Positions 4,204-53,136 of a stretch of DNA of 64,000 nucleotides are shown here, in pieces. The notes under the pieces are model-generated. The model worked only from the letters and a program-made list of their open reading frames with translations, made no database searches and was not told the DNA's origin. The first letter of the stretch is position 1; every line of letters begins with the position of its first letter. The DNA is from a virus. Both the position numbers and the translations under genes were made by a program. The stretch lies in the IMG/VR virus record IMGVR_UViG_3300020020_000001, positions 16,171-80,170 of that record; one strand, given 5' to 3'.

Positions 4204-5060
4204 TGACCAATGTACTTTTTGAGCTAGCGCGTGAAAAGTTTTTGGGTGGCACCCTAGACTGGGACACGCAGACCTTTTCTGCGGTGCTGCTCGACCTGTC
4301 CGTTTCTGATGCTGGAATTCGTCAGATCACCAGCTCTACCAACGCTACACCGATTGTGGTAACAACCGCAGTTGCACATGGCTTTACCACAGGAGACATT
4401 GTTTATGTAGACGGTATTACGACGGGGACCTCTGGCAATGGCCTGTGGGCGATTACGGCAGCTTCGGGATCTGTTTTTAGTCTTACTGATCCTATCACTG
4501 GCACTAACGCTGTTGGTAACGGTGTCGGCTCTGGCGGTTATTGTGTCAACTTAGGTCGTTCTACTTCTGCTGACTTCTTTGACGACTTTGATGCGGCACT
4601 TGTAGGCTCTAAGGTTAACCTAACATCGCCAACAATTGTTGGTGGGGTTGCCGACGCAGCCGACGTCACGTTTACTTCGGTATCAGGTGCCTCGGTTGAG
4701 GCTGTTGGTATCATTCGTGATACTGGTGCTAATGGTACTTCCGAAATGGTAGCACTCATCACAGGTAAGCACATTGTGGTCTGTAATACTAACTTAGCGG
4801 CTGGGACGACACTTCTCGTTGAGCCGATTAAGTATGCAATTCCGAACGGTACTGTACTAGCATTCTCTACTGGACAGTCTGCTACCATGACTGCACTAGC
4901 TAATGCTGGAGATCGTTCACTGACTGTATCATCTACGACTGTAACCGCAGGCGCTAAAGCGCTTGCACCAGCAACAGGATCAGGATTACCAGTAACTCCA
5001 AACGGTGGCAACATCGTGGTAACCTGGGACAATGGTGCGAATCGGATTTTCAAGCTCTAA
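4203..5060 (+). CDS. Virion structural (tail-associated) protein
   Basis: 'TNATPIVVT...HGF.TGD.V' module and C-terminal 'GLPVTPNGGNI.V.WDNG..IFKL'. Confidence 0.6.
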   Translation: MTNVLFELAREKFLGGTLDWDTQTFSAVLLDLSVSDAGIRQITSSTNATPIVVTTAVAHGFTTGDIVYVDGITTGTSGNGLWAITAASGSVFSLTDPITGTNAVGNGVGSGGYCVNLGRSTSADFFDDFDAALVGSKVNLTSPTIVGGVADAADVTFTSVSGASVEAVGIIRDTGANGTSEMVALITGKHIVVCNTNLAAGTTLLVEPIKYAIPNGTVLAFSTGQSATMTALANAGDRSLTVSSTTVTAGAKALAPATGSGLPVTPNGGNIVVTWDNGANRIFKL

Positions 5061-5078
5061 TTATAATAAGAAGGTAAA

Positions 5079-5483
5079 ATGGGAGCACAAGGAACAGTCA
5101 GTCTCGATTTTGGAGTGTTTCCTGGTGGTTCAGACGCTTCTGTTGTTATTACTGGGCAAACCAGTATCCTAGCTGGCTCATTAGTTGAAGCATGGATTCT
5201 ACCAGCCGATACTGCCGATCACACCGTTGATGAACACCTTGTCGAAACACTGAGTATACTAGCCGGTAATATTGTAGCTGGAACTGGCTTCACCATTTAT
5301 GGAATAAATACGAGTCAACTAAATGAACCAATTACGATTAAACAACATGAAGGTAGTTTGCATCAGGCCAATGCCACCACCATTGTATATAAGGTTGCGG
5401 CTCGTGGAGCTGGACCGGCTCAAGATGGTGGAATTGGTACACGACTTTATGGAGTTTTCAATATAGGGTGGGTGTGGAACTAA
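5079..5483 (+). CDS. Probable virion protein
   Basis: ORF with SD in the structural operon. Confidence 0.5.
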   Translation: MGAQGTVSLDFGVFPGGSDASVVITGQTSILAGSLVEAWILPADTADHTVDEHLVETLSILAGNIVAGTGFTIYGINTSQLNEPITIKQHEGSLHQANATTIVYKVAARGAGPAQDGGIGTRLYGVFNIGWVWN

Positions 5484-24948: not shown

Positions 24949-25815
24949 TCACTGCTCGATTGGCTGTGGGAAGGCCATCGTTGAGCGCCAGGAAATTGCA
25001 TTCCGACGCTTCTTATTGGCGTAATCATTCCAAGCAATGATGTAAAGTGCCAAGTGCATAGCAGCATCACGACGCATCTTGGGTTGACCCTTTGATCGAA
25101 CCATGTATTCACGGAGCACACGACGTGGATCATCGTTGCCAGTGTAATTCAGGCCGCTATATAGCGCTTCCAAGAATTCGTTGTGTGGTCCTGTTGGATA
25201 GGCACGTTCACAGACAAAGTAGCCAGCCGTAACTGCTGATGGAATAAATCCAACAGGAATCAACGGAGTGGCGTATGGAACGTATTCAATCAAACCAGTT
25301 TTCTGAACAGTCTGTAGGATTTCGTGGTTAGAAACCTTAGTACCACGCCAGTACTTGTATTCCAGGTTGTCAAACTGAAAAACCAGACGAGCAGCCGCTG
25401 CGAGTGAATTCTGATTTGAGTAACCTGCAATGGCAAGAATCTGTGCCGCAGACCGAGGCAAACCAGTGTCCAAAACGTCGAATACATCGTCTTCAAGTCC
25501 AAACGTAACCTGCATTTGGATCTTGATCTTTGGGTTTGCTGGCAAAGTCTCATCACCCATAGTGGCACCTTGTTCACCAGCTTGAATGACTGCCATGATA
25601 CGGTGCTGGCCATCCTTCATAAAGCCAGACTTGGCAAAACCAATACCTTGATGGGTGAGTCGCCACTTGCCTTTCAGCATGTCAAATGCATACTGGTTGA
25701 CCTTGCGTGCACTCATCGGACGGTTAGTACCAAATTCGCCACGCTGGTAGGGCAAATTCTTTTCTGCCCAATCCTTAGCCTTTGTGAGTGTTACGTCGTG
25801 GACTTCCGTTTTCAT
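24949..25815 (-). CDS. ParB-like (DGQHR) protein
   Basis: 'NR.MS...V..YA.DM..G.W...QGI.F....DGQHR', 'DTG..RS'. Confidence 0.7.
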   Translation of the reverse strand: MKTEVHDVTLTKAKDWAEKNLPYQRGEFGTNRPMSARKVNQYAFDMLKGKWRLTHQGIGFAKSGFMKDGQHRIMAVIQAGEQGATMGDETLPANPKIKIQMQVTFGLEDDVFDVLDTGLPRSAAQILAIAGYSNQNSLAAAARLVFQFDNLEYKYWRGTKVSNHEILQTVQKTGLIEYVPYATPLIPVGFIPSAVTAGYFVCERAYPTGPHNEFLEALYSGLNYTGNDDPRRVLREYMVRSKGQPKMRRDAAMHLALYIIAWNDYANKKRRNAISWRSTMAFPQPIEQ

Positions 25816-26011
25816 CTTGTGTGCTCCATGTATGTATTAACCAGTATATAGTAGTTCGGTTGATTCCAGTCATACGTGCAAGATTGGTTACTTGGTTCGT
25901 TTTCATTGCTTTAAGCAGTAAATTTGCTACCACTTCTCTTTGCTTTTTATATTCTATTTCGTCAGAGTTTAACTTTAGTACCGCCTCCAATAGAGCCGCA
26001 TGTATATTCAT
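25775..26011 (-). CDS. Small HTH DNA-binding protein
   Basis: 'VTNLARMTGINRTTIYWL'. Confidence 0.65.
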   Translation of the reverse strand: MNIHAALLEAVLKLNSDEIEYKKQREVVANLLLKAMKTNQVTNLARMTGINRTTIYWLIHTWSTQDENGSPRRNTHKG

Positions 26012-26064
26012 GTTAGGCTCCTAGTTTACCGATCTTCATGGCTTTCTCCTTGATTATGAATTTG

Positions 26065-26140
26065 TGGTAGTCCCGGTCGGGATCGAACCGACGACCGTCG
26101 CATTAAGAGTGCGCTACTCGTTCCACTGAGTTACGGGACT
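26065..26140 (-). tRNA. tRNA-Lys(CUU), CCA encoded
   Basis: Cloverleaf; loop CUCUUAA. Confidence 0.9.
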
Positions 26141-26151
26141 AGGTACTTGGC

Positions 26152-26180
26152 AGTGTGTCAGAGAACTGTCGCGCTGTCAA
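26152..26180 (-). promoter_or_regulatory. Sigma70-like promoter upstream of tRNA-Lys
   Basis: TTGACA-17-CACACT. Confidence 0.5.
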
Positions 26181-26210
26181 GCACATTTATGTATTTGAAT
26201 GTGTCTATTT

Positions 26211-26675
26211 CTAGCTCTTGTCGAACCAATCATAGTACTCATAACGGTCTTCGTATCTAATAAGTGTTGGTTCGAAGCCAACCTTGATCTCTTGTCACCA
26301 CATTAGCATTCGACCAGTTCGACCGTTGCCATCAATGAATGGATGGATGTGCTCAAATCGGATGTGCTCCATCCTTGGTGTATTGGTCAGATCTGTAAGC
26401 CATTCATCCATAAGTGTTGGCACATCACGCCAGTGTGGGCAGTCACGGCCACCAACGGTGACGTTGGTTAGTCGATAGGAACCACGTCCACCAGGCTTCA
26501 ATAACAAGAAGTTCATCATGATAGCGCTGTGCAATTCGAGTACCATAAACTCATTGAGTGGACCTGGATGATCCTTGATGAGATTCCAAGCTATCCAACT
26601 CTGCCCAATTTCAGCTTCGTCTGTAACACCTTCGATAAGGTTGGACTGTCGGATGTGATCTTCAGTTATATTCAT
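26211..26675 (-). CDS. Fic-domain protein with in-frame UGA at 26295-26297
   Basis: Canonical HPFIDGNGRTGR; frame continues 27 Fic-like residues past the UGA. Confidence 0.8.
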
Positions 26676-27009
26676 ACTCGTCTTCCGAATCTTCTTCCCA
26701 GTCGAGTGCTTCGGCTACTTCTCTGACTGCTACCTTGCGCATCTCATATTGAGCCTCATAAGCAAAAATATCTAGCTCATGCTTTGGCTGTGGGATGTGA
26801 TTGATACCCAAAACAGAGCGCTCGTAGTTCATCTTACTTGGCTTACGGCAACGAGAACACACCCACAGACCAGACGGTCGGTCGAGTGTGTACCCATCCT
26901 GACTTCTATGTGCACCACGCCGATGGCAGTTACACCATGGATGGATATTGAGTTCGACCATTAGTGTCCTTTTGTTGATGTCCGTTTTGTCCTTGAGATT
27001 TACGTGCAG

Positions 27010-27082
27010 TACCCACAGTAGGGATCGAACCTACGACTTACTGCTTAGAAGGCAGTCACTCTATCCGCTGAGTTATGTGGGC
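27010..27082 (-). tRNA. tRNA-Arg(UCU)
   Basis: Cloverleaf; loop CUUCUAA. Confidence 0.9.
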
Positions 27083-27704
27083 TTAACGGATCGTGCATGA
27101 ATTAGTACACGTACTAGTAGAACTATATCACTTGGTATGCCACCAACTTGCGCTATGGCAATCACTATTTTATGCCAGGAATTTGGTTTTTGGTCATTGA
27201 GCCAACCAGTGAATGTAGCAGGTGTTATACCTAAAAACCTAACTATGTCATATGAACCTAGCCAGTGTCGATTTGGCCGCCGTTGGTTGCATCTGCGAAT
27301 CTCAACTACTCTTCCATAAAGAATTGAGTCCGCAAAGAATTCATAAATTTCAATCTCTACTAGTTTAGGCAATAGAAGAAGTAGTCGACGATTCTGTCGA
27401 ACAGCAGCGCCATTATCCATAAACATTGTACCCATTGGAATACTTGATCGTCTTAGCTTGTCATTGATAATCCAAACCTTGTTAGACCAATGGCAAGGTG
27501 TAAGTAAGGTGGTGGCGTACGTATCAGTAGTCCAACCACCTTCGTTTTGTACTCTTATTTCTGTAACTCGCCAACGATAATCATGCTGTAGAACCGTAAT
27601 GGAAATCCCTTTTACGTTTGGTCGTTCCAACATTACATCGGTGTGGAGTTTATATTTTGCGTTATCCATTGTATGCTCATCACTATTAGTTATGTGGTAT
27701 CACG

Positions 27705-28170
27705 TACGCATGGTAGGATTCGAACCTACAATCACTAGGACTTTCTTCCTGCTTTGCCGGCACATCTTTTAGAACAGAATGGGCCGCGACCTTTATATAA
27801 AAGTTGGTTAGTTTTATATCTTTTGTATTCACGATAGAAATTCGAACCACAAATTGGGCATATGAAGTTCTTCCATGAAGTAGGACGCTTTGATTTACTA
27901 AGATTTTCGTCTTGAGTTAAAATTTGTAAGTTATCAATTCTGTTGTCACGGAAATCTTCATTTCTATGGTCAACATGTTCCCAAGACTCAAGCTTGCGAC
28001 CCAAATGTTGTTCCATAAGATAACGTGGATACGATTGTGTACGACCGACCCCATTCTCGTAATGAATTACGAAAAATCTTCCAGGCTTGGAACCCGATTC
28101 ATAAGGTCCATATACAGCAATCATATTTATATCCTAGATCCTAGCGGCTTTGCCATTAGCCCACATGCGC
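27705..28170 (-). tRNA. Split tRNA (probably Leu-CAA; CUA also possible) interrupted by an HNH ORF
   Basis: 5' half ~28137-28170, 3' half 27705-~27743; acceptor GCGCAUG/CAUGCGU, anticodon stem CUAGG/CCUAG, intact D and T arms. Confidence 0.8.
27735..28124 (-). CDS. HNH homing endonuclease with C-terminal Zn finger
   Basis: 'R..ME..LGR.L...EHVDH.N....DNR.DNL'; C..C...FCS..C. Confidence 0.85.
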   Translation of the reverse strand: MIAVYGPYESGSKPGRFFVIHYENGVGRTQSYPRYLMEQHLGRKLESWEHVDHRNEDFRDNRIDNLQILTQDENLSKSKRPTSWKNFICPICGSNFYREYKRYKTNQLLYKGRGPFCSKRCAGKAGRKS

Positions 28171-28435
28171 ATATTCAGTTGTTGAGATTTGGACTTTGGA
28201 ATGTATAGTTGTACCTGTGGGCTAGAATAAGCAAGCCCACACCATTACTAGCCAACACGGTAGCTATGTAAATATATGTTAATGTAAACAACATTACTTG
28301 TTCCTTATTGCAGAAACAAATTCGTAGCCAATCCAGATCGGAATGGCAAACCCACAGGACAAGATTGATGCAAGTAAGAAGCCTGCCCTGATCTGTGACT
28401 TCGTGTTGTACTTAATCTGTACTATGTTGTTCATG

Positions 28436-28507
28436 AGCCCCGTGTAAGAATCGAACTCACAATTCCTTATTACAAGTAAGGTGTTATGACCATTTAACTA
28501 ACAGGGC
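28436..28507 (-). tRNA. tRNA-Thr(UGU)
   Basis: Loop CUUGUAA. Confidence 0.85.
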
Positions 28508-29189
28508 ATATTTAGTTATGTTAGGTTGCCATCCTCACGCAACTTACTTACTCGCTCGAAGATGTCTTCCAGTAATGCAGTTGGATCAACACCTGTAGCT
28601 CTACCAAGCAAAGCCATTAGCTCTGTGATAATAGCAGCGGCACCATCAGTACCAAACAAGAACATTACCTCTGCGTGATCTTGTGTTCTATTGATTCTAC
28701 CACTCAATGCCATAGCAATTACTGAGCTGTCGCTTCCTTCAAAATCTAAAGTAGATACAACACACTCTTTTAGCAAGATCGCATTTCTAGTATCTAGGAC
28801 TACACCAGCTTGGTCATGTGGTCCACCTGGACCTATGATTTTGCCGCCTAAATTACGAGGATCAGCCGTCCTCTTAATTTTACGTCGATTACTCATCATC
28901 CTGTCCAACTCTTAGTTCATCCTCAGGATCTTCACCTATTGCCTCGCAGATCTTAGTCCAGATAGGCTCAAGACACAAACGACATAAATCCTTACGAACT
29001 CTAGAGTTGACACATAAGTCGACATTCAATAGAATGATTAGTTCTTGCGCATATAGATCTTCATTGCCGTCTGGTGGTTCATCAGGATCAACAATCTTAC
29101 CACAGACATCACATTTTATCGTAGTCGTGTATGTTGTGATGATGGTTGCAGGTGCAACCTCGTTGACTACTACGGTTTCTCTTGACATG

Positions 29190-29264
29190 TACTGGTGGAG
29201 GGAATCGAACCCACTATCACTAAGTTATAAGCTTAGCTGCAAGACCAAAGTAGCATTCACCAGC
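29190..29264 (-). tRNA. tRNA-Ile(UAU)
   Basis: CUAAG-CUUAUAA-CUUAG; atypical D arm. Confidence 0.75.
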
Positions 29265-29678
29265 ATATTTAGTTATAACAACTTGAGAATTTCCTCTTTA
29301 AAGTACTGGCCGATCTCCTCCGCGCTCACGATGCCCTGCTCAACGCAGGATTCGAGGTCCAGAGGTAGCGGTCTGCCGGCCCCTGGTGCACGCTGGTCGA
29401 CGAAATCGTGCGCGAGCTGCGCCACTGCGGTCAGGATTAATTCCTTTTTGAAATTATAGTCAACGCTACTCAACTGTTATCACAACTCGATCAGTTTCTG
29501 GGTCATACCGCACGGAATCGATCTTCCAGTACGTGTCACCAACCTGGACAAATACCTCTTTTAGAGCTGCACCTGTAGTCCTTTTGAGTGCACGCTCTAG
29601 GTCAGCTTTCCTCATATAACGAGTCCAATCAAAACAATTGCTGTTATTATGATTATGAATAATGATACAAATTTCACG

Positions 29679-29749
29679 CTCAGGTACCTAGATTCGAACT
29701 AAGACTCCCGCATCCAAGGTGCAGTGGGCTACCATTACCCCATACCTGA
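29679..29749 (-). tRNA. tRNA-Gln(UUG)
   Basis: U1-A72, G73, loop CCUUGGA (C33). Confidence 0.75.
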
Positions 29750-29750
29750 T

Positions 29751-29829
29751 TGGTAGATCGGGTGGGATTTGAACCCACGATTTTGACGAATTAAAAGTTC
29801 GTTCCAATTGACCGCTCTGGCACCGATCT
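29751..29829 (-). tRNA. tRNA-Lys(UUU), CCA encoded
   Basis: Loop CUUUUAA. Confidence 0.85.
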
Positions 29830-30706
29830 GTATTTAGTTATGATGGCCAATTATCTAGATAACTACTACCGAAGTTGGGATCATAGGTGTACTCGTATGC
29901 GAGGTCAAGATCTGCTTTTACTGGAAGACTTCTCCCTCGTGGTGCACTGCCATATACCTTACGCCCACAGAGGCAGCACTTACCATGAACGTCAGTGGAT
30001 TTGTGCTCGCCACTGATGTCCTCTTTGCATGCACCATTACGATTCAGGCGCGCCTCGTGCTCCTCACGTAGACGCGCCCGGACCATTAGTTCTTCAAAGC
30101 TAATCATTCGCTGTCCCAGAGTGCCTGATGCCTGTGGGGAAAGGTTTGGAAATCACCATCTTCAAGGTCTTTACGAGACATCTTCATCATAGTTCTTAGT
30201 TGGCTACGGAGTGTCGTTCGTGCATGACCATTAGCTTCTTTACGGTATACCTGTTCGTGCCTACCACGAGCCCAGATGTGCTGGTTACCAAGATCATTTG
30301 CCCAATAACAACAGCCACGTCCAGACCAAGTGTAGCATTCTACAACGTTAGCTTGCATGTCGCAGATGCCGCGCTCGTGGTTGTGGTTCTCTTCTCTCCA
30401 CTGTGGGTTTTGCATGAGCTTAACCCAGTATGGTTTTGTTTTGTCCGTGTTGGACATGATGCCTTTCCACGCCCTGGTCTCTCCAGGTCGTTACCTATGC
30501 ATCATGTCGACCTCCCAAAAAGCTTAGCGTAAGTTGATGATGTAATCATCATAACCATGGTTAACCAAATGCAGAATGTTACTAACCTTGCACCTGGATT
30601 GACTGAGAAAAGCATAGAGATGAGGACATCAATCCACATCACTATGACCAAAATCCATAGCAACATCCGCATGATTGGATGATCTATGAATTCTCTCATA
30701 GATCAT

Positions 30707-30930
30707 CTATTTTGGCTTTGGAGGATTAGCTGGTGGTACTGGAATGATTGGCCGTGGTGGTGTAGGCGTATTAGCCATTTTGTTCTCCTTAAATGAATTT
30801 CGGTCCTGGTGCTGACCTTGGCTTCGGCTTGGGCGGTGGAGGTGGCGGAGTCGACGGTCTGTTAGGCATTTGGTTTTGGTCTTGGTGGTGGTGGCGGAGG
30901 TGGTGGAGGAGGCTGTATAGGTCTAGGCAC
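30707..30930 (-). CDS. Three tandem proline-rich micro-ORFs (30862-30930, 30789-30869, 30707-30778)
   Basis: Translated by hand; AGGAG SDs or overlap coupling; 22-26 aa each. Confidence 0.6.
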
Positions 30931-31149
30931 TTCTTCTCCTATATGGAAATGGACCGAAATATGTACTAATCTTGTGGAAGAAATCCGGCATTCGCTTGAC
31001 CAGGTTGCGCCATGGTAGGCTGATGACCAACAACAATTTGCCTTCTAGTCATCTCTTTGGATACTTGCTCAAGTTGTCCATGCGCACGTTGCATGCGCTT
31101 TCTGACTGACTTCATTTTGTTGATGTAAGATTCACCAGCTTCTTGTACT

Positions 31150-31680
31150 TCATTCCGAAGCTGTTCCATTTGCCATACAAGTTGGTTGTATTGGTTTATG
31201 ATATCTTCGTTGGCCATTGACGCTCCTAGTAGTGATATTACATCTAAAGCAGGATACAACTAGATTGCTTATATCATTATTTAACTTATCAAAGTTAAGA
31301 TGATCTGATAATATACCATGTATGCCACCCCATGTAAGAGTTACACCACACCAATTGCATTCATGTTCACAATCAATGGATTCACAACCAAGTGAATTCC
31401 ATAAAACCAATCTATGTTCTCTAACAACTCCATTTTGTGGACTAGCTAATGGATGATTCCACATACCACTAAGTGATACATAACCATCTGCTATGTATCT
31501 TCTTATCGGTTCTTGTGTTGGTTCTGGAACCTTTCTTCCTCTACGTTTAAGAGATTTATCACTAGTCCAGTAATCTTTACTTTGAACATACTTGCGAGCA
31601 ATGCCTTCTAAATCCACGTTTAATGTCGCACGGATATACGAAATATTCATTATTGCACTGCTCACGAGCACATAATACAA
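31150..31680 (-). CDS. HNH endonuclease
   Basis: 'HP.A...G.V.EHRLV', C..C, 'DH.N.DK.NN...NL...C..CN'. Confidence 0.8.
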   Translation of the reverse strand: MYYVLVSSAIMNISYIRATLNVDLEGIARKYVQSKDYWTSDKSLKRRGRKVPEPTQEPIRRYIADGYVSLSGMWNHPLASPQNGVVREHRLVLWNSLGCESIDCEHECNWCGVTLTWGGIHGILSDHLNFDKLNNDISNLVVSCFRCNITTRSVNGQRRYHKPIQPTCMANGTASE

Positions 31681-31709
31681 TAGGCATGGTGTTCCTTTGT
31701 TGTACTGAG

Positions 31710-31780
31710 CTCCCTCACCTGGAATCGGACCAAGATCATGCGATTAACAGTCGCAGGTTTTGCCATTAAACTATGAGGGA
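31710..31780 (-). tRNA. tRNA-Asn(GUU)
   Basis: Loop CUGUUAA. Confidence 0.85.
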
Positions 31781-32239
31781 TTGCCCTACCGATTGGGCGA
31801 CATGGGATTGATACTATTCAATTGTAGGCCAAACAAGTTTTAGATATTCAACTATTTTCTTACGTCCATATTCCCAAGTTCCAACGTATGAATTTGATAA
31901 CCAATATTTATGCCATTCATCATCGTCTAATAGAATTTCCATAAGACGTTCAAATCTTTCGTTTTCGTTCATGCTTGTTAGACCTCGCTTGGCTTTATTA
32001 AGTTGTAGCAGTCCTCACAGTTGAAGAACAGATCATTCTCAGGATCACGAGCCTGATCCATAGTTATAGCTCTATCACCATAGACAGCATGTCCACACAT
32101 GGATTGTAAGTTACTAGCATCAGGATCTAGTACATGTGTCGTTGGCTCTATTACTTCTGTCAACTGTGGCTCCAATTGTCCTGGAGTTTCCCATTCATAC
32201 GCTTCACGCCAAGCGGGGTTACTAACAAGCATGTTGATA

Positions 32240-40668: not shown

Positions 40669-41760
40669 CTAAGCATTGACCGTGCTCAGGTTGCTATCTA
40701 GGTAGTTGCCAGACCAGTCAATGCCTGAGTGGTTACAAGCATCGGTGAGTCCATAAGCAGCGGAGTAATCGTGACCAGCCTTAGCAGGTACAAACCGGTT
40801 TTTACGTACAACAAAACCAATACCTTGCTCTGGACAGTACACGGTGTAAGCACCGCCACCAAAGAAATTGTTCTCAACCAGCCACATGTTATTTGCGGTT
40901 GGGTTTGTGATGATGGCTGACGTCATTGGATTCAGTTGTAACATTGTGTTGTGTCGAATAACAACGTTGTTACCACCCTGTGACTGAATACCATCACCAT
41001 GTGGAGCATTGCCGCGACCTTGTTCAGAACCTCGAATGAATGACTCAGTGATTTGTGAGTTGCTGTTCATTTCCAACCCGTTCTCACACTTGTCAATATA
41101 CATACGAGTGGCGCGGAAGTTCGGTCCAGCAAGTGCATTACCATGTGCGTAGTTACACGTAATTTCCGTGTCGCTAATTGTAGCTACGCCAGTTGCGGGT
41201 ACTCTATCCGTGTTGATACCGTGGTAGCAAGAGTCTGACACTAGCAGCTTCACGTTGCGAATAACTACATTCGCCGCGAAGATGTAGATACAACCATTGT
41301 GTTCCCGGTTTTCTAGTACAGTACCAGCTACTGTTATATTGATAACACCACTCGAACTGGTAAGCACTGTTCCAGTTGGGACACCAGTGTTCACGGCCGT
41401 TGGATACCCACAGGCACCAGGATTCGACCAACAATTGGTCGGTGTTGGACTAGGTGTTGTTACAGTAGGCGAAGGAGTAGGACTAACTGTCTGACTCGCT
41501 GACGCTGACGGGCTTCCTGTGGGTGTGGTCAGAAGTGCAATGATTGCATTCTGATCATTGATACAGTTGACGGCCCGTGTCCGTTGCGAACTACTTGTTG
41601 TATTACTCGCAAGTAGTTGACAGTTTGCCTTAGCATCCTCTGCTAACTGTAACCGGCTCGATACGGACGATGGCGCAGCGCTAGCTAGCGACGACCAACC
41701 GAGCATAATGATTACTGCACCACCAATTACTGATGCAGCAACCTTACTATTCCGGTGCAT
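40669..41760 (-). CDS. Secreted right-handed beta-helix (pectin-lyase-like) protein
   Basis: Signal peptide, P/T linker, 'GYP...NTGVP.G..L', 'HGDGIQ..GG.N..IRHN'. Confidence 0.75.
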   Translation of the reverse strand: MHRNSKVAASVIGGAVIIMLGWSSLASAAPSSVSSRLQLAEDAKANCQLLASNTTSSSQRTRAVNCINDQNAIIALLTTPTGSPSASASQTVSPTPSPTVTTPSPTPTNCWSNPGACGYPTAVNTGVPTGTVLTSSSGVINITVAGTVLENREHNGCIYIFAANVVIRNVKLLVSDSCYHGINTDRVPATGVATISDTEITCNYAHGNALAGPNFRATRMYIDKCENGLEMNSNSQITESFIRGSEQGRGNAPHGDGIQSQGGNNVVIRHNTMLQLNPMTSAIITNPTANNMWLVENNFFGGGAYTVYCPEQGIGFVVRKNRFVPAKAGHDYSAAYGLTDACNHSGIDWSGNYLDSNLSTVNA

Positions 41761-41813
41761 CCATACTCCTTAACTCGAAAACATTGGAGTAATGTCTGAA
41801 CCCCGTACAATAT

Positions 41814-41887
41814 TGGCATGAGTTGTAGGATTTGAACCCACACAAAAGACTTTGGAGGCCTTTATGCTACCGTTACATCAAACTCAC
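41814..41887 (-). tRNA. tRNA-Trp(CCA), CCA end encoded
   Basis: Loop CUCCAAA; U11-A24. Confidence 0.9.
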
Positions 41888-41968
41888 TAGGTGTGACCAC
41901 AGCTCAGACACTATGGCCACACTTGGTTACCTATTTCTCCGCCCGCTAGAGCTAGAAAGAAGGAACCG

Positions 41969-42040
41969 CACCCTCAGCAGGATTCGAACCTGCACTTATA
42001 GCTTCGTAGGCTATTACTCTGTCCGTTGAGTTATAAGGGT
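41969..42040 (-). tRNA. tRNA-Arg(ACG)
   Basis: Loop CUACGAA. Confidence 0.9.
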
Positions 42041-42316
42041 TTATGTGGTGGGCTTCTCATTAACTGTGCTTCCCCACAGGGGTTACCTCGCATGGCGAAC
42101 CTACACCCGCCCACCACTCAAGTGTACGGCATGGTTGGTAACTAGTCACTGAGACATTTATGGTCCCTCCCAAGATTTACGTCGGGGGAGGGATTCCGAC
42201 GTTTCCACTAATGGCCTGAGGAGACTATATCATGGAAACTTAAGTACGTAGTGACTGGGCAGTACTGTGTGCATCCCGGCAACATAGTGCAGCAACCACT
42301 ACGCACGACTATGAAA

Positions 42317-42407
42317 GCTTTGGATATGCTTAACTGAATCGAATTGTCAGCGCTGCAATGCGCCGTCCTGTGAATGGGTGGATAACCGATTCATTCCGAC
42401 CCAAAGC
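42317..42407 (-). ncRNA. Y RNA #4
   Basis: GCUUUGG-GUCGGAA-UGAAUCG-GUUAUC ... CGAUUCA...AUAU-CCAAAGC. Confidence 0.85.
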
Positions 42408-42436
42408 CCCGGTGCCGTTGGCCTCCGGCAGAAAAT

Positions 42437-42583
42437 AGATTCGGATATGTATTTGTAATTGGAAATGGCTTGCGCCAAGGCAATTGCTCTACCAATTGAG
42501 CTATACGACGATAAATCGTCGCAGTAGGACTCGAACCTACAACCCATTGCTTCCAGATAACCAACTACGGCCGACCCGAACCT
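42437..42583 (-). ncRNA. yrlA: Y RNA #5, canonical YrlA type (T arm, closed acceptor-like stem, D arm)
   Basis: GUAGG-UUCGAGU-CCUAC, UGCGACG/CGUCGUA, UAGCUCAAUUGGUAGAGC inside the Ro stem AGGUUCGG-GUCG...UUAUC / AUAU-CCGAAUCU. Confidence 0.92.
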
Positions 42584-42666
42584 GAAACTTGAATGCGTAT
42601 CTCGTCCTCCACTATACGCTTACCACACCCATAACGGCACGTGTGGCATCCACTTTTTCATAGCTA

Positions 42667-42744
42667 AGACACGGATATATACCACTAGACAAGGAGTTTT
42701 ATCTCCAAATGATAGGATAACCCTTGTCAATCCGACCCGTGTTT
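42667..42744 (-). ncRNA. Y RNA #6 (minimal, 78 nt)
   Basis: AAACACGG-GUCGGAUU-GACAAGG-GUUAUC ... CCUUGUC...AUAU-CCGUGUCU. Confidence 0.85.
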
Positions 42745-42777
42745 GACGTCAGCCCTCTGTCTGACAATGATGTAGTA

Positions 42778-42916
42778 TCGTGGATATGTATTGAGATCGG
42801 GAGTTTCACCTATTACTAGGCTAGCCGGTACCGTCCGGCGTATGGTGTTGGTCCGTGTCGCGGAGCACCATGGTGGAATTGAACCATCGATAACCGATTA
42901 CTCTGCCGACCCACGA
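42778..42916 (-). ncRNA. Y RNA #7 (divergent YrlA-like)
   Basis: UCGUGG-GUCGGCA...AUCGG-UUAUC, UGG-UUCAAUU-CCA, AUGGUG/CACCAU, GCCGG/CCGGC, AUAU-CCACGA. Confidence 0.85.
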
Positions 42917-43281
42917 ATTAAATCTAGTAGTCCTGGAAATGTCTCACCCAAATTGTACGCTAGGTGATCATTACCGCCAGAATCTCTTACCGTTCTTGAT
43001 ACTGCCTTTGGCAGTTGATGTTTCAGGTTGTTACAAGTTCCATGTGCTAACTGCACGTTTGCGTCGTCACGAGCTTCATCAAGTGTGCACAGTGCGAAGT
43101 CTTTTATGTGGTCGCGGGACCAATCTTCTCTTTTAACTGGCTGAAAGCACAGTTGACAGATTCCGCGATCTCTTACATAAATTCGTTCGAGTTGTGCTCT
43201 TTTATTTTTTGTTTCGTTGCGACGTCTTCGTGCTTCGTGATTCATGTTGACCCAGTCTGGCTTTTGATGTGCTTTACTCAA
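42898..43281 (-). CDS. HNH endonuclease
   Basis: 'RD.GICQLC', 'DH', 'N.QLAH..CN..K'. Confidence 0.85.
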   Translation of the reverse strand: MSKAHQKPDWVNMNHEARRRRNETKNKRAQLERIYVRDRGICQLCFQPVKREDWSRDHIKDFALCTLDEARDDANVQLAHGTCNNLKHQLPKAVSRTVRDSGGNDHLAYNLGETFPGLLDLIRGSAE

Positions 43282-43572
43282 TGGGCATCATCTCTCTTTA
43301 TTGTTATTGCTACTCTTCTTCCATCACCACTGCATGTTGTGAATGCGCCCTCTTTAAAAACACATTCTCATGTTGGGTGGCAGTGGCTTCACAATGGAAC
43401 CTTTAGTAGCCATCGTCACGTCTTTTTGGCACCCGGCAACTAGGTCATTGTTGGCAGCTAATCGCCGGGGCACACCAAAATTTTTTGCGTTATGCGATTT
43501 TAGTGTCTAATTTCTGACACTGTAATAGTCCGGTTAGACCGTAGTCTCTGTGGCGGGACCATACCCACATAG

Positions 43573-43644
43573 TAGCGCAGTCGGGAGTTGAACCCGAATC
43601 TTCAGGGTTATGAGCCCTGCGTGTTACCTTTACACCACCGCGCG
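43573..43644 (-). tRNA. Initiator tRNA-fMet(CAU)
   Basis: C1:U72 mismatch and three G-C pairs in the anticodon stem. Confidence 0.9.
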
Positions 43645-43660
43645 ATGTTATTATATTACG

Positions 43661-43732
43661 TACACCCACAGGGATTCGAACCCCGAACCTATGCCTTGTA
43701 AGGACACCGCTCTCCCGTTGAGCTATAGGTGC
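43661..43732 (-). tRNA. tRNA-Val(UAC)
   Basis: Loop CUUACAA. Confidence 0.9.
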
Positions 43733-44495
43733 AAGATGCAGCAACCTTTGTTTCATGGTCATCACTCAGCAGTGTTAACAATCAGAGATCTCCTCTGACA
43801 ACATACGGTTGCTGCAAATCTTCCATTTGTTGAAGTTTATGCGTGGACTTTGGCCCTGAGGAGCCACGCTTCCTACTTAAGTACGCTGGCCCGGACGGAA
43901 CCATTGTACTAGGCTAACACACTGTATCAAGCTTAGACACAAAGCGATACAGTGTGTCCTCGCGCTGCGCTCGAAAGGTAAAATGGACAAAAACCCTTGA
44001 GGCGCGCTAAAGGTCTAACAAGTATGGAATTCTCAAATCCCAAGGACCAGAAGACTGTCAGCCCTCTGTCACGTGCCAACGAGAAGAACCGTAGCACGTG
44101 CTCGCGGTCGAGGTCAAGGGTATTCGTTCAATCATCATTCGCGCTGGTCAGAGCGTGATCAAATCGACGAAAGTCAATATGTCCGATATGTCCTCTGCAA
44201 CTTGCAACTGGCAGGTGCAGAACACGTTACTAGTACACTGACTAGTAACATGCACAACATCTGCTAGACGTTCAATGTTAGAGTGATTCGCGTGCTAACT
44301 TCCTCTGCTGACATCATTTCAAGTTGCCCAATAAACTTGTCACGGAGATGCTCCATGACAAATTCCTTGAGATCTTGAAACGGTACCTCAACAAAGAGGT
44401 GACCATCGTCAGCCGGTTCTACCTTATCCTTTGACACCGTGATAAGGACGTTGCCGGAGAAATCACCATTGAAATGGAATCTTACATTCTTAGTA

Positions 44496-44852
44496 CTAAG
44501 AGAGTGCATCTTTGTATTCCTCAACTGTCTCAGCGAACTTGGTAAATTCTTCTATCAACCATTCTGGTACATCAGCTTCGTCACCATCAAGACCATTGCC
44601 AAGGAAAATAACGTTCCCTACAAGGATATCACCACGTGGCCAACCAAGTTTATGTGCAAATTTGGTTGCTACTGTGTTAGGACGAAGTGCTTGTATCTTT
44701 CCTTCTTCATTACAATAGCCATGCCAGTCACTATGTGAGTTTCCACTGCTAAAGACCTCAATGTAACCACCCACAGTAGCCTGTAGCCACTCTAGTGTCA
44801 CGTCGATATGGAATATTGAGGCCATTTCAGCTTCAATAACGAGTACCTTCAT
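44496..44852 (-). CDS. DUF3846-like protein
   Basis: 'L..LQ..VGGYIE', 'CNEEGK...L.PN..AT', 'D.L.G.V...G'. Confidence 0.8.
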   Translation of the reverse strand: MKVLVIEAEMASIFHIDVTLEWLQATVGGYIEVFSSGNSHSDWHGYCNEEGKIQALRPNTVATKFAHKLGWPRGDILVGNVIFLGNGLDGDEADVPEWLIEEFTKFAETVEEYKDALS

Positions 44853-46097
44853 TTTTTCTCCATTTGTTAGTTGTGCAACACGACACTCAATCGAGTTGAG
44901 TGTCATGCAATACAACTAAGCCGGTGCCTTTTCTCTGCGTCTGCGCTTTGGTTTTTCTGGTTTTGGGTCACCGTTTACATAAGTTAGAAAATCTGGATGT
45001 GCTTCGTAACAGGTTTTGTTCACACATGGTGTAATGTGACCATATCGTGTCACTAATTCGTAACAGTTTGGTCTATTCCGTCCATCAGGATGACAAGTAT
45101 TTGGGTGACAGAGTGGTTCCGCTTTGTGACCACGACTGTATCCACCGGGCAAATTACCCATTCTGCGTTGACAGTGGGCACAGCCCATCGTTGCGCCATA
45201 CGTTGTGCCGTTTCCGGCCATTTTGCGGCTTGGCGACTTGTTGTAGTTCATGTACTCTCTTCCAATTATGGTACTGGAATATATGCAGCGGTAACATCAG
45301 TCCAAACTGGTACTGGTATGTTTGATTCAAAAATCTTGACTGCACGTACTCCACCACCAACACGAGCGACTGCCCGCAAACGATTGAAAGCGCTTACTGC
45401 CTCCGCTTCAGGCATTTGTGGTAATTCAGTTGCTACCCAATCATCAGTTGTAACACTGCCGGCCGGAACGCCAACCGGTCCAGATTCATAGGTAACCTTA
45501 AACAGATTAGCCATTCTCCACCTCTGATTCTTCTAGCTCCTTGCTAGGAGCGTTGAAACCTTTACCGGGAGGACATTCTGGACAAGGAGATCCGTCGTAC
45601 CAAGGCTTGTACTGTCTGTGTGGGCAAGCCCAGTCCACCTCTTCTGGTGCGGTACGCAGTTGCCTTATTACTAGAACTGCTACGCCGACTACACCTGCTA
45701 CTGTCGCAGCCAGTATAGCATAACCGAGCGGAGTCTTAGGAATCATGTGCGCAAACTCCATCCTGTGGGCAATCACCAATGTCGCAGCGATCACAGTCAC
45801 AATAACATTCTTCATGGCAGTCATCGAGAAAGATATCGATACCTACGTCCTGTGGGATTGGTTCAGGTCGAAAGATCTTCATCCCAAATACATTCCACTT
45901 CTAATTCGGTCATGTCAAGCAGGATAGCTAACCGATGAATTTCGGTTCGCTTTCGAATCTCCATCTCGCGGAAGTACAGGTTTCGTGTTCCCTTGATGTA
46001 TAATTCTTTCATTTGCTCAACAGTTATCGTTGCCAATTCTACTCCTTCGATCTTAGTTGTGCAACACGGCTCAGGTGCAAGACCTGAACCATGCAAC

Positions 46098-50300: not shown

Positions 50301-53136
50301 CCCACGAAACCGCTTTTCGGCCGGCAGCGTGCTGCACAGCGGGCTAGTGGGCCATCCTCGCGCCGGTCGTGCGGTGCGCGCGACCAGGCGAGGTGAACGA
50401 CCGTTTAGGTGAACATAGTTGAATCTGGCGTAAATGTTATATCAATATTCGCACTCTCTAAGGAAGCACGAAAATTTCTGAACTTATCGACTGTTGGCAC
50501 AACACCAACACCAATAATTTCGCCATCCATGTATAACTTGTAAGGAACCGTGCCATCTTTAATGTTGTACCTAACGCTCAGAATCATTACGCTTTACCCG
50601 TCCTTTATGCGGTACCTCCGCATATCTGGTAAGACCACCATCAACGATGCGCTTTCGCCTATCTATGCACTTAGCGCCAGGAATAGCAGGACAAACTGGA
50701 CACTGACCATACCAGGACCAATCTGTTCGTCCCCTAATTCGTACCGTCATAGTGCTTTCCCCGCCATTTTAACCACCTTAGTTCTGGATCAGTGAGAATG
50801 TAGATTGCGCCACACTCTTTACAAGTCTTCATATATTCTGAATATTCATAAGAATGCACACCATAAGAACATCCGGTGATATGCGAATCAGGACTTAGCA
50901 AGGCAAGAAGGTGCATCGTCTTTTTGACGTGCTCAGCCCGCTGATTTCTTTTCTTTCTTAGTCTACTAGACATAATCTGCCTCTCTAAGTAAACAGCCCG
51001 ACCCCTGTGGGTTATGCCCACAGGAACCAGACAGATCACTCAGATTTCAATTTCTGCTACTTGCTCAGCGGTCAGGTGACCATACTCAACAATATCTTGG
51101 CGGACGGCTTTTTCAAATTCATCGATGTTGCTGGTGAAATTGTGGTAAACCTTGTCACCGAGCAAATCGTTGAAGCCGAGTACCTCATTGGCTGCATCTT
51201 GAAATAGCATCCAATTGCCATCCTTGTCGACGGCATTCCAAAGAGTTGGCCCACCATCGATAGGCTTGCGCAATCGGTTGGAAAGGCTCAATGCCCATCC
51301 ACCGAAACAATAATACGTGTTGCAAGTCAAGCCATCACCATCAATATCATAGTTGGTCGCCCAACCAAGCTGACTCCAATGAGCCAAATCTTCACGAATA
51401 GCCTTGAAGACAAGATCAACTAGCTCCATGTTCGGCGTCGCGGCTGGTACATTATTTTCCATTTTGTAATCTCCTTTGTTAGTTGTGCAGCACCAAGCAT
51501 TGCCCACAGGCAATGCATGATGCAACGCAACTAGGCTTTTGGTTCCCACCACAATGGTAGAAAACGATCACCTGTGATCGCACTCCTAGTGAGGTATTCA
51601 TCCAATTCTTTGATTAGTTCTACTAGCTTGAACGAATCATTGCCATACTCACCAGTAGTGAAATACAAAACGTTGTCGTTGGAATTATCCACCTTGTACT
51701 TGATAGTGGCAACAAGACCACGAATCCTGGTGAGTGCCAGTGTTGCATCATACATTTTATTCCTCCATTTAGTTGTGCAGCACAACGCTCAGGCTGCCCT
51801 GAACATGATGCAACGCAACTAATCTAGGGCTTGCTTCTTTTGGTGTGCCTGTGCGTATAGTTCTTGGAAAGTCTTAGCCACTAAGTTGACCGCAGCATCT
51901 TGCCTGTGGTCATTTCCTTGCGTAACGATAGCTGACAATAGATCGTCTGGTACCAACACTGATTTGGTAACTGGCCGAATCTTGCCTGGTATCTTGATTG
52001 AGAGATCTACCCGAAACCAAGCTTTAGACATCTTAAAATTCCTTCCATACATTTAGTTGTGCAGCACCATGTCTGTGTTCCCACAGGCATGATGCAACGC
52101 AACCAAGCTTAGTGAATACTACGAAAGTCCTCAAAATTCGCCTTCAACTGCCACTGTTCTGGCAGACCACCACCATTTGACATAATTTCGTCGAATGCTC
52201 TGAATTGCAAAATGAATGCCGCAGTAGCGCGGCCAGCAATGCGCTGGTCATCTGCATTCCAGGCTAACGATAGAAGCTCGCGGAGTCTGGTGAGTCGGTC
52301 TGTTGTAGAGATTTCTTGAACTCTTCGTACTTTTGCAGGTTCGCCTGACGACTGGCCATCTGCTGACTCAATCGACTGGTTTTCTTGGTTTCCACCATTA
52401 TCAACCATTGTACCATGTCTCTTTCTACTCTGACATGTTCATTCCAAAGTTGTGTTGCGTTCCAGCCACTGAGCCCACAGGTGCAGGTCAGAATCTTGCG
52501 AAAGAGTCCTGCCTTCCTACTGTATACATTGTGCTCATAAGCGCTGGTTTTCCAATCATCTGGCACATATGCCATACTTCTCCTAATATAGTTACTGTCC
52601 ATTATTAGTCGAATAGCACGACTGCCGACACTCGAATCGCGTCGGCAATCATACAAAACGGCCAATTAACTGTCCTACTGAGCTTCGTATTCACTCTTGT
52701 TTTTGATCTTGACTTCCTTATCTGGAAGGTCGGCAAGGAAACTTCCGAATCCATCAGTGCGCACTTGCACCTTTTCCAGATCTAACCGACGCTTCTTGAT
52801 TTCTGTATCGCGAAGGTATCCAACAATCTCAGCGTCGCTATTGTCTTCTTGCACCTTTTCGAGGTCGGCCTGCCAATCATACATCTTGACACGCTCGACT
52901 AGCTCGATCACCTCATTGTAATACTCATTTTCATCAGGAATTGCTAGGTTCCTGACTAGAATGTAGAATTCGCGCCGGTCAATTGGACCCTTGATTACCA
53001 TTTTATTGGTTCTCTTTCCGTTTCATTGTTATAGAAACAACACCCTCATTGTGCGCGGTATTATAAATACCGTACAAAATGTCGAGCGCCTCCCGGTACG
53101 GAAGATCTCCCCACAGGGACGCCCGACCTGTCTGCC

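Follow-up and report, generated by a model that had tools for sequence, protein, structure and literature searches.

A split transfer RNA (tRNA) gene was analyzed in the complete 80,170-bp soil phage record IMGVR_UViG_3300020020_000001 of IMG/VR, where the two halves of the tRNA flank an open reading frame (ORF) encoding an HNH endonuclease. The window, meaning the whole stretch of 64,000 nucleotides (nt) under analysis, corresponds to bases 16171-80170 of this record, and coordinates refer to the window unless another sequence is named. The phage genome has 127-bp direct terminal repeats and a G+C content of 46.8%, and its minus strand carries 24 intact tRNA genes, of which 23 were identified by ARAGORN and one by Rfam alone. 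The HNH gene is situated within this tRNA cluster and on the tRNA strand.

The split tRNA and the gene inside it

The locus comprises the following features.

28170..28134, minus strand: 5' half of the tRNA, reading GCGCATG-TG-GGCT-AATGGCAA-AGCC-G-CTAGG (positions 1-31, 28170..28140), then A32 T33 (28139..28138) and CTAG (28137..28134)
28144..28138 and 28137..28131, minus strand: tandem duplication CTAGGAT-CTAGGAT, the first copy being anticodon-stem positions 27-31 plus positions 32-33
28133..27741, minus strand: insert of 393 nt as placed by ARAGORN, between positions 37 and 38, with the anticodon CUA
28136..27744, minus strand: insert as placed in the Leu(CAA) reading, also 393 nt, between positions 34 and 35
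28124..27735, minus strand: HNH gene, an intact ORF of 129 amino acids, with its TAG stop (27737..27735) inside the CCTAG of the 3' anticodon stem
27743..27705, minus strand: 3' half of the tRNA, reading A35 A36 G37 T38 (27743..27740), the stem strand CCTAG (27739..27735), and then the variable loop

Beyond the variable loop, the 3' half continues with the T arm GTAGG-TTCGAAT-CCTAC, the acceptor strand CATGCGT, and the discriminator A73 (27705), and CCA is not encoded. The acceptor strands of the two halves pair at 7 of 7 positions (G1.U72 included) and the anticodon stem at 5 of 5, and U8, A14, G18G19, A21, G53, T54-T55-C56, A58, and C61 are all canonical. The CTAG at 28137..28134 belongs to the exon or to the insert according to how the junction is read. 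When introns were allowed, ARAGORN called a 74-nt tRNA(CUA) with a 393-nt intron at 37/38, and nothing was called at the locus when they were not. The intron option also gave a clear false positive at one other place in the genome, and it was not relied on alone. Rfam picked up only a T-arm fragment of the split tRNA, whereas the 3' half was matched, starting at position 35, by an nhmmer profile built from tRNA(UAA) genes of phages (E = 0.0019).

The insert is composed of 381 nt of ORF up to the junction and 12 non-coding nt, and the final 9 nt of the ORF (AAG TCC TAG) are part of the tRNA 3' half. The second CTAGGAT copy supplies an AGGA Shine-Dalgarno sequence located 7 nt before the HNH ATG, with ATAAAT separating this copy from the ORF. 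Group I and group II intron models of Rfam, RF00028 included, had no match at E <= 10 in 27600-28300 (701 nt), nor at E <= 1 in 25000-45000. A sequence-only reading of this locus had described intact and complementary halves, an insert of about 393 nt consisting almost wholly of a 390-nt HNH ORF that stops in the 3' anticodon stem, a CTAGGAT duplication that provides the AGGA, and neither room nor signal for a ribozyme, and all of this was borne out, the last at permissive Rfam thresholds. It had also noted that no RtcB was visible, an observation that now extends to the complete phage genome, in which RtcB, tRNA_int_endo (EndA), RNA_ligase (Rnl2), and RNA_lig_T4_1 (Rnl1) had no matches.

When the 466-nt RNA spanning the locus was folded, both the minimum free energy (MFE) structure and the centroid kept the acceptor stem, the D arm, and the T arm (z = -4.07 versus shuffled sequences), and the anticodon stem was extended by A32-U38 and U33.G37 before opening into a multiloop. 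The 3' strand GTCCTAG can pair equally with either copy of CTAGGAT, and the first copy was the one paired in the MFE fold. The repeat may represent a later slippage that freed the Shine-Dalgarno sequence from the anticodon stem, where pairing of the 3' strand with one copy or the other would hide or expose it.

The HNH protein matched the HNH_3 domain (PF13392, E = 5.6e-9) and phrog_14913 (E = 2e-19). When it was aligned with 26 homologues, all 23 invariant columns were found to be kept, and the retained HNH residues include the core D52 H53, N65, and N74 as well as a C-terminal four-Cys motif (C89, C92, C117, and C121). Its tail (…CAGKAGRKS) resembles the variable tails of the homologues, and the frame is therefore not considered to be truncated by the tRNA. 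A PDB sequence search with the family profile returned only zinc-finger noise. The identical protein was present on three contigs. With a G+C content of 38.5% versus 46.8% for the genome, the gene falls in the bottom 1.2% of 390-nt windows and is the second lowest among ORFs of at least 120 amino acids, the lowest being another HNH gene in the same array. This low G+C content points to a foreign insert that has not yet been ameliorated.

Two intact tRNA genes of the phage bear on the identity of the split tRNA.

34997-35070, minus strand: tRNA(UAA) of 74 nt, short in its variable arm and mismatched at A31.C39, 7 kb from the split tRNA and the only tRNA(UAA) of the phage
39877-39958, minus strand: tRNA-Leu(UAG) with a normal long arm

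Among about 350 tRNAs, the nearest to the split tRNA was the phage's own tRNA-Leu(UAG), with 56 of 73 positions identical, and the two share an identical anticodon stem, G1.U72, and A73. The D arm of the split tRNA, GGCTAATGGCAAAGCC, is nearly the same as that in annotated phage tRNA-Leu genes, and the 5' half found its best GenBank matches in annotated tRNA-Leu genes 73-74 nt in length, namely those of Streptomyces phage Wofford (UAA) and Mycobacterium phage Wildcat (CAA). At 5 nt (TGATT), the variable loop falls short of the long (class II) arm of tRNA-Leu. Excluding Leu on account of the short variable arm was ruled out by 73-75-nt tRNAs with Leu anticodons in the phage, in the homologous loci, and in GenBank phages. 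Judging from these comparisons, the split tRNA belongs to a short-variable-arm "phage tRNA-Leu" group, of which the 74-nt tRNA(UAA) of the phage is a further member.

The exon end and the insert end both read AG, so that the junction is ambiguous by 2 nt. A junction at 35/36, 36/37, or 37/38 results in CUA, and a junction at 34/35 results in CAA. These are the two anticodons that the sequence-only reading had proposed for the rejoined loop, and both stand as serious readings. Of the eight possible 7-nt loops, five carry CUA, one carries CAA, and one carries AAA. AAGT, the 3' flank, is also found at positions 35-38 in the loop TTTAAGT of the phage tRNA(UAA), and Leu(CAA), parsed as A32 U33 C34 / A35 A36 G37 U38, is therefore favored. 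The context of the HNH family likewise favors the 34/35 junction. The original anticodon was thus most likely CAA with the insert at 34/35, as read from these loops, and CUA is the alternative. TAG terminates 28 of the 94 long ORFs, including that of the HNH gene itself. A TAG-recoded genome was considered and received no support from the stop-to-stop and joined-ORF analysis, where no systematic in-frame TAG-joined gene pairs were found. Because of this stop codon usage in a genome free of TAG recoding, a working amber suppressor would be awkward.

The HNH family at homologous loci

A set of 87 homologous HNH loci was fetched with flanking sequences, comprising 7 from IMG/VR and 80 of 309 metagenome loci, which brings the total to 88 when the present locus is included. 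The 87 loci formed 62 clusters at >= 90% identity. A tRNA was located within 100 nt of the HNH homologue in 81 of the 87 loci, and by automatic count it was a same-strand tRNA(UAA) in 77 of those, with 32 upstream and 45 downstream of the HNH gene. After boundary artefacts were corrected by eye or with nhmmer, a tRNA(UAA) was found in or against the HNH gene in about 83 of the 87 loci. Both structural classes were represented among the adjoining tRNAs, with a true long-arm tRNA-Leu in 31 loci and the short type in 47. In a tree of 74 distinct HNH sequences, the present protein fell within a clade in which an adjoining tRNA(UAA) accompanies every other member.

Many of the homologous loci also contained orphan tRNA pieces, located across the HNH gene from the adjoining tRNA. 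At least six lineages (L005, L025, L039, L040, L051, and L024) have orphan 3' halves with TTAAAAT as their first bases, and in L005, L025, L040, and L089 the HNH stop codon TAA doubles as the anticodon. At L017, L005/L036, and L051, a resident tRNA survives as two halves that enclose the HNH gene together with an entire tRNA(UAA) belonging to the other of the two structural classes, and the acceptor strands of these split resident tRNAs are complementary at 7 of 7 positions (computed for L017 and L005, by eye for L051). Cassettes composed of an HNH gene and a spare tRNA-Leu, splitting a resident tRNA-Leu, were identified at L017, L005/L036, L024, L039, and L051, with a possible trace in Salmonella phage PVP-SE1, and L017 contains the most similar HNH homologue, at 60% identity. 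We found no paper that describes such cassettes. L030 contains an orphan 5' piece that shares the D arm of the split tRNA, and orphan halves in other lineages show visible decay or truncation. A group I intron at the Rfam gathering score was found in none of 20 homologous loci.

The present locus is the same kind of invasion as the cassettes of its relatives, minus the spare tRNA. Among the 88 loci, it is the only clean split by a bare HNH gene, and neither an intact spare tRNA nor a third tRNA fragment was detected besides the two halves in 27600-28300 by ARAGORN, Rfam, or nhmmer. From the distribution of tRNAs and orphan pieces, the family most likely targets the anticodon stem-loop of Leu-type tRNA genes for homing and in most cases supplies a replacement tRNA. 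The spare tRNAs of the relatives would be unneeded if the insert were spliced, which argues that family members are not removed from RNA.

Several further observations were made among the homologous loci. Family members occur beside a tRNA-Leu gene in cultured phages, the examples being Salmonella phage PVP-SE1, Klebsiella phage KP2025, and RaK2, and in KP2025 this tRNA is annotated as UAA. In PVP-SE1 (L100, NC_016071.1, 66019-66384), the family member has 42% identity, is unannotated in GenBank, and lies inside a tRNA array, just before a tRNA-Leu read as UAA by ARAGORN and downstream of an apparent orphan 5' piece of a short-type tRNA. At the cassette junctions of L005/L036 and L024, loop bases (TTAA in L005, TTAAA in L024) are present on both sides of the insert, which fits a staggered anticodon cut followed by fill-in. 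In L018, L023, L025, and L030, the tRNA(UAA) 3' end (…GGCAC) directly abuts the HNH ATG without a spacer or Shine-Dalgarno sequence, and tRNA 3' processing would yield a nearly leaderless HNH messenger RNA (mRNA). In or beside tRNA arrays, L008 includes a bacterial class A RNase P RNA (4856-5206, 145 bits) and L020 a transfer-messenger RNA (452-866, 85 bits).

A perfect 12-nt inverted repeat, AGAGAGCCTATC / GATAGGCTCTCT, flanks the cassette of HNH and tRNA(UAA) that splits a long-arm tRNA-Leu in L024 (contig Ga0138294_1080675, approximately 897-908 and 1400-1411). Its duplex was predicted at -24.9 kcal/mol versus -8.0 +/- 2.6 for shuffled sequences, and in RNA such a helix would join the orphan halves, as in archaeal split tRNAs. 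A flanking helix of this type was not seen at L017, L005, L051, or the present locus. A helix closing the insert was evaluated here and rejected as not significant, at -10.0 kcal/mol and matched by 8.7% of shuffled sequences.

Explanations for the split tRNA and its place in the array

The locus is probably best explained by an intron-less homing insertion, in which a free-standing HNH_3 gene entered the anticodon loop of a Leu-type tRNA and left the tRNA as a fresh relic. A recent insertion of this kind was among the possibilities raised by the sequence-only reading, and it gained support from the habit of the family (about 83 of 87 at loci of the tRNA-Leu(UAA) type), from the orphan halves, and from the foreign G+C content of the gene. 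The HNH protein most likely cuts the DNA of Leu-type tRNA genes at the anticodon stem-loop, and DNA-level homing or ectopic insertion would have inactivated a tRNA-Leu(CAA)-like gene. As nothing appears to remove the insert from RNA, the split tRNA would not be made and its gene would be a relic. UUG, which is used at 12.1 per thousand codons in the phage, would continue to be decoded through the intact 74-nt tRNA(UAA).

A scan for a promoter belonging to the split tRNA itself found sigma-70-like sequences upstream only at chance level, and the locus is therefore probably transcribed together with the tRNA array. In the transcript, the paired halves would bracket the HNH mRNA with a tRNA-like acceptor/T-arm module, where RNase P and 3' trimming enzymes probably cut. 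Translation of the HNH protein would start from the AGGA in the second CTAGGAT copy and end at the UAG in the 3' anticodon stem.

Certain observations weigh against this explanation. Simple homing does not account for the 7-nt tandem duplication at the 5' junction, and the flawless halves, with a loop that can be rebuilt to exactly 7 nt, would be expected of an intron as well. No donor is known, as the closest HNH homologue is just 60% identical. Uninterrupted alleles in relatives, suggested as a check by the sequence-only reading, were not found. The exact 5' half had no match in IMG/VR, and BLAST searches with each half against GenBank phages gave weak tRNA-Leu matches only and no uninterrupted allele. 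The flanking proteins led to no tRNA-bearing relatives. The phage encodes Ro60 and a Y-RNA-like match, and the nearest related phage, identified through Ro60 at 54% identity, has three tRNAs and no counterpart of the split tRNA. Because no insert-free allele emerged from IMG/VR, GenBank phages, or relatives, the recency of the insertion and the original anticodon are inferred.

Other explanations differ in what the halves would be doing at present. The halves, themselves non-decoding, might have been selected as a tRNA-like bracket that directs RNase P and 3' trimming enzymes, thereby releasing, stabilizing, or timing the HNH mRNA, with the CTAGGAT copies serving as a Shine-Dalgarno switch. 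A retained RNase P/Z processing scaffold was likewise among the possibilities raised by the sequence-only reading, which did not choose between them. We regard such an exaptation as unlikely. It would be in keeping with the folded acceptor, D, and T arms and the extended anticodon stem of the 466-nt RNA, with the equal pairing of GUCCUAG to either copy, and with the sister loci L018, L023, L025, and L030, where a tRNA 3' end lies against the HNH ATG. tRNA processing is also known to cut a homing-endonuclease mRNA in T4 (segB/tRNA-Arg) and has been proposed to do so in T5 (PMC2330249). However, a fresh relic would be processed anyway and selection is not required, orphan halves are decaying or truncated in other lineages, and conservation of the layout cannot be shown with no relatives that share it. 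The bare state could also be derived, where a former cassette of HNH and spare tRNA(UAA) lost its spare by deletion, in which case the tRNA would be a relic all the same. All other members of the HNH clade have an adjoining intact tRNA(UAA), and L017 shows exactly such a cassette inside a split tRNA. This history nevertheless seems improbable, as it requires a precise deletion of a whole tRNA that spared the HNH ORF, the Shine-Dalgarno sequence, and both loop edges, and the 27600-28300 region holds no trace of a third tRNA fragment.

Removal of the insert at the RNA level was considered with and without a ribozyme. A protein-spliced tRNA intron, also raised by the sequence-only reading, would involve cuts by a host or HNH-assisted endonuclease and sealing by a host RtcB-type ligase, resulting in a working tRNA-Leu(CAA) or a (possibly timed) amber suppressor. 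In its favor, neither half has a defect, a 7-nt loop with U33 and a purine at position 37 can be rebuilt, and the 37/38 placement by ARAGORN is the canonical archaeal/eukaryal site, around which two 3-nt bulges with well-placed cut sites can be drawn on a helix of 3 of 4 bp; the Ro60 and Y RNAs of the phage are, in addition, associated with RNA repair. By inspection, however, no proper bulge-helix-bulge motif is formed, as the central helix has an A.A mismatch and an inner helix is absent, and the MFE fold opens into a multiloop. EndA, RtcB, Rnl1, and Rnl2 are all missing from the phage genome, the relatives need spare tRNAs, and amber suppression would extend translation past the TAG stops counted above, including that of the HNH gene. 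To our knowledge, no protein-only tRNA splicing exists in bacteria. This proposal found no support and is very unlikely to hold; if true, protein-dependent splicing of a tRNA would be seen for the first time in a bacterial system, and a seemingly broken gene would yield a working tRNA. A tRNA-shaped element within the insert that RNase P/Z could excise was also sought and rejected, with no tRNA-like element inside the insert and no phage ligase. A cryptic self-splicing ribozyme overlapping the HNH reading frame has scarcely any chance of being correct. It would suit a Leu-tRNA anticodon loop interrupted possibly at 34/35, the site at which tRNA-Leu(UAA) genes of cyanobacteria and plastids have their group I introns. 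The group I junction rule (a U at the end of the 5' exon and a terminal intron G) is satisfied only by the junction that gives AAA, and neither the CAA nor the CUA junction combines the two. Moreover, no covariance model matched even at the permissive threshold, the insert is nearly all ORF and its protein aligns over its full length with homologues located outside tRNAs, and the 20 homologous loci lacked group I matches at the gathering score.

The surroundings of the split tRNA include additional genes and repeats. A second free-standing HNH gene (31150-31680, minus strand, 176 amino acids; phrog_9443, E = 9e-18) is located 28 nt downstream of tRNA-Asn, has, at 36.5%, the lowest G+C content of any ORF in the genome, and is no relative of the HNH gene in the split tRNA. 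Directly after the split tRNA is an ORF of 198 amino acids with a low G+C content of 40.7% (27073-27669, minus strand), which had no Pfam or PHROG match and no IMG/VR relative. A gene for a Fic/DOC-domain protein (26295-26675, minus strand; PF02661, E = 2.5e-14) lies amid tRNA genes just downstream of the split-tRNA region. The tRNA found by Rfam alone (29190-29264, minus strand) scored 46 bits, and its loop CTTATAA gives the anticodon UAU (Ile, AUA). The best look-alikes of the phage tRNAs were actinophage tRNAs, and no GenBank phage relative exceeded 34% identity in the DNA polymerase. Upstream of the 5' half is the following hairpin.

28214..28241, minus strand: hairpin TGTGGGCT-N10-AGCCCACA, 44 nt upstream of the split-tRNA 5' end, including one copy of the octamer CCCACAGG

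This octamer occurs genome-wide in 30 copies on the minus strand and 17 on the plus strand, without an extended consensus. Several copies pair with an inverted copy as hairpins, as at 28214-28241 and at window positions 51011 and 47394.

Relation to known systems

Free-standing homing endonucleases are found inside phage tRNA clusters, including SegB (GIY-YIG) of T4 and F-TflI/II/IV (HNH) of T5, as described in PMC2330249 (Akulenko et al., 2004, as cited there). The same paper reports that SegB recognizes a tRNA T-arm motif, and it also mentions MobE (PMC2330249). The present HNH gene resembles these in being a selfish nuclease gene on the tRNA strand of a phage tRNA array, with an ORF that overlaps tRNA processing sites. 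SegB and the F-Tfl enzymes recognize tRNA-gene DNA and spread themselves along with neighboring tRNA genes, and by analogy the present HNH gene may be akin to them in this respect. Unlike SegB and F-Tfl, which lie between tRNA genes, it cleanly splits a gene inside the anticodon loop. It also differs in its protein family (HNH_3, phrog_14913) and in its predicted target, which would be the Leu anticodon stem-loop and not the T arm.

The closest likeness is to the cassettes of HNH and spare tRNA-Leu, whose nucleases belong to the HNH family of the present gene (up to 60% identity) and which have in common with it the Leu-type anticodon-loop target, the orphan halves with complementary acceptor strands, and the lack of a ribozyme. 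In contrast to them, the present locus is without a spare, and the tRNA invaded is CAA or CUA rather than UAA.

The group I introns of cyanobacterial and plastid tRNA-Leu(UAA) genes are located between U34 and A35 and can carry homing endonuclease genes. They also interrupt a Leu tRNA in the anticodon loop, at a position that is possibly identical (34/35), but the present insert has no model match, no room for a ribozyme, and no agreement with the U/omega-G rule for a sensible anticodon. In Aeromonas phage Aeh1, an endonuclease gene, mobE, is inserted in a ribonucleotide reductase gene, and the two protein fragments reassemble and work. Both are intron-less endonuclease genes that split a host gene at the DNA level; unlike the Aeh1 protein, a tRNA severed in its anticodon loop needs ligation before it can decode. 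Archaea have bulge-helix-bulge tRNA introns and split tRNAs (PMC4090602). The present locus is similar to these in that an intron-like insert can be placed at 37/38 and the halves pair via the acceptor stem, and it differs in having no proper bulge-helix-bulge, no phage splicing endonuclease or ligase, and a bacterial-type context of Shine-Dalgarno-led genes and actinophage tRNA relatives.

Homing endonucleases between phage tRNA genes, where they reshuffle the arrays, are already known. What is new here is a nuclease gene that sits cleanly inside an anticodon loop and whose family is associated with Leu tRNAs. Annotation misses such loci or labels them as tRNA-Pyl or as intron-containing suppressor tRNAs, and phage tRNA repertoires can be over-read. 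Over the present locus and its 87 relatives, one HNH family would appear to have a single target, the anticodon stem-loop of Leu-type tRNAs, at or next to the ancient group I intron site of tRNA-Leu(UAA). The combination of a nuclease and a spare tRNA resembles engineered "cleave and rescue" selfish elements, and the present locus corresponds to such an element minus its rescue copy, displaying the break alone.

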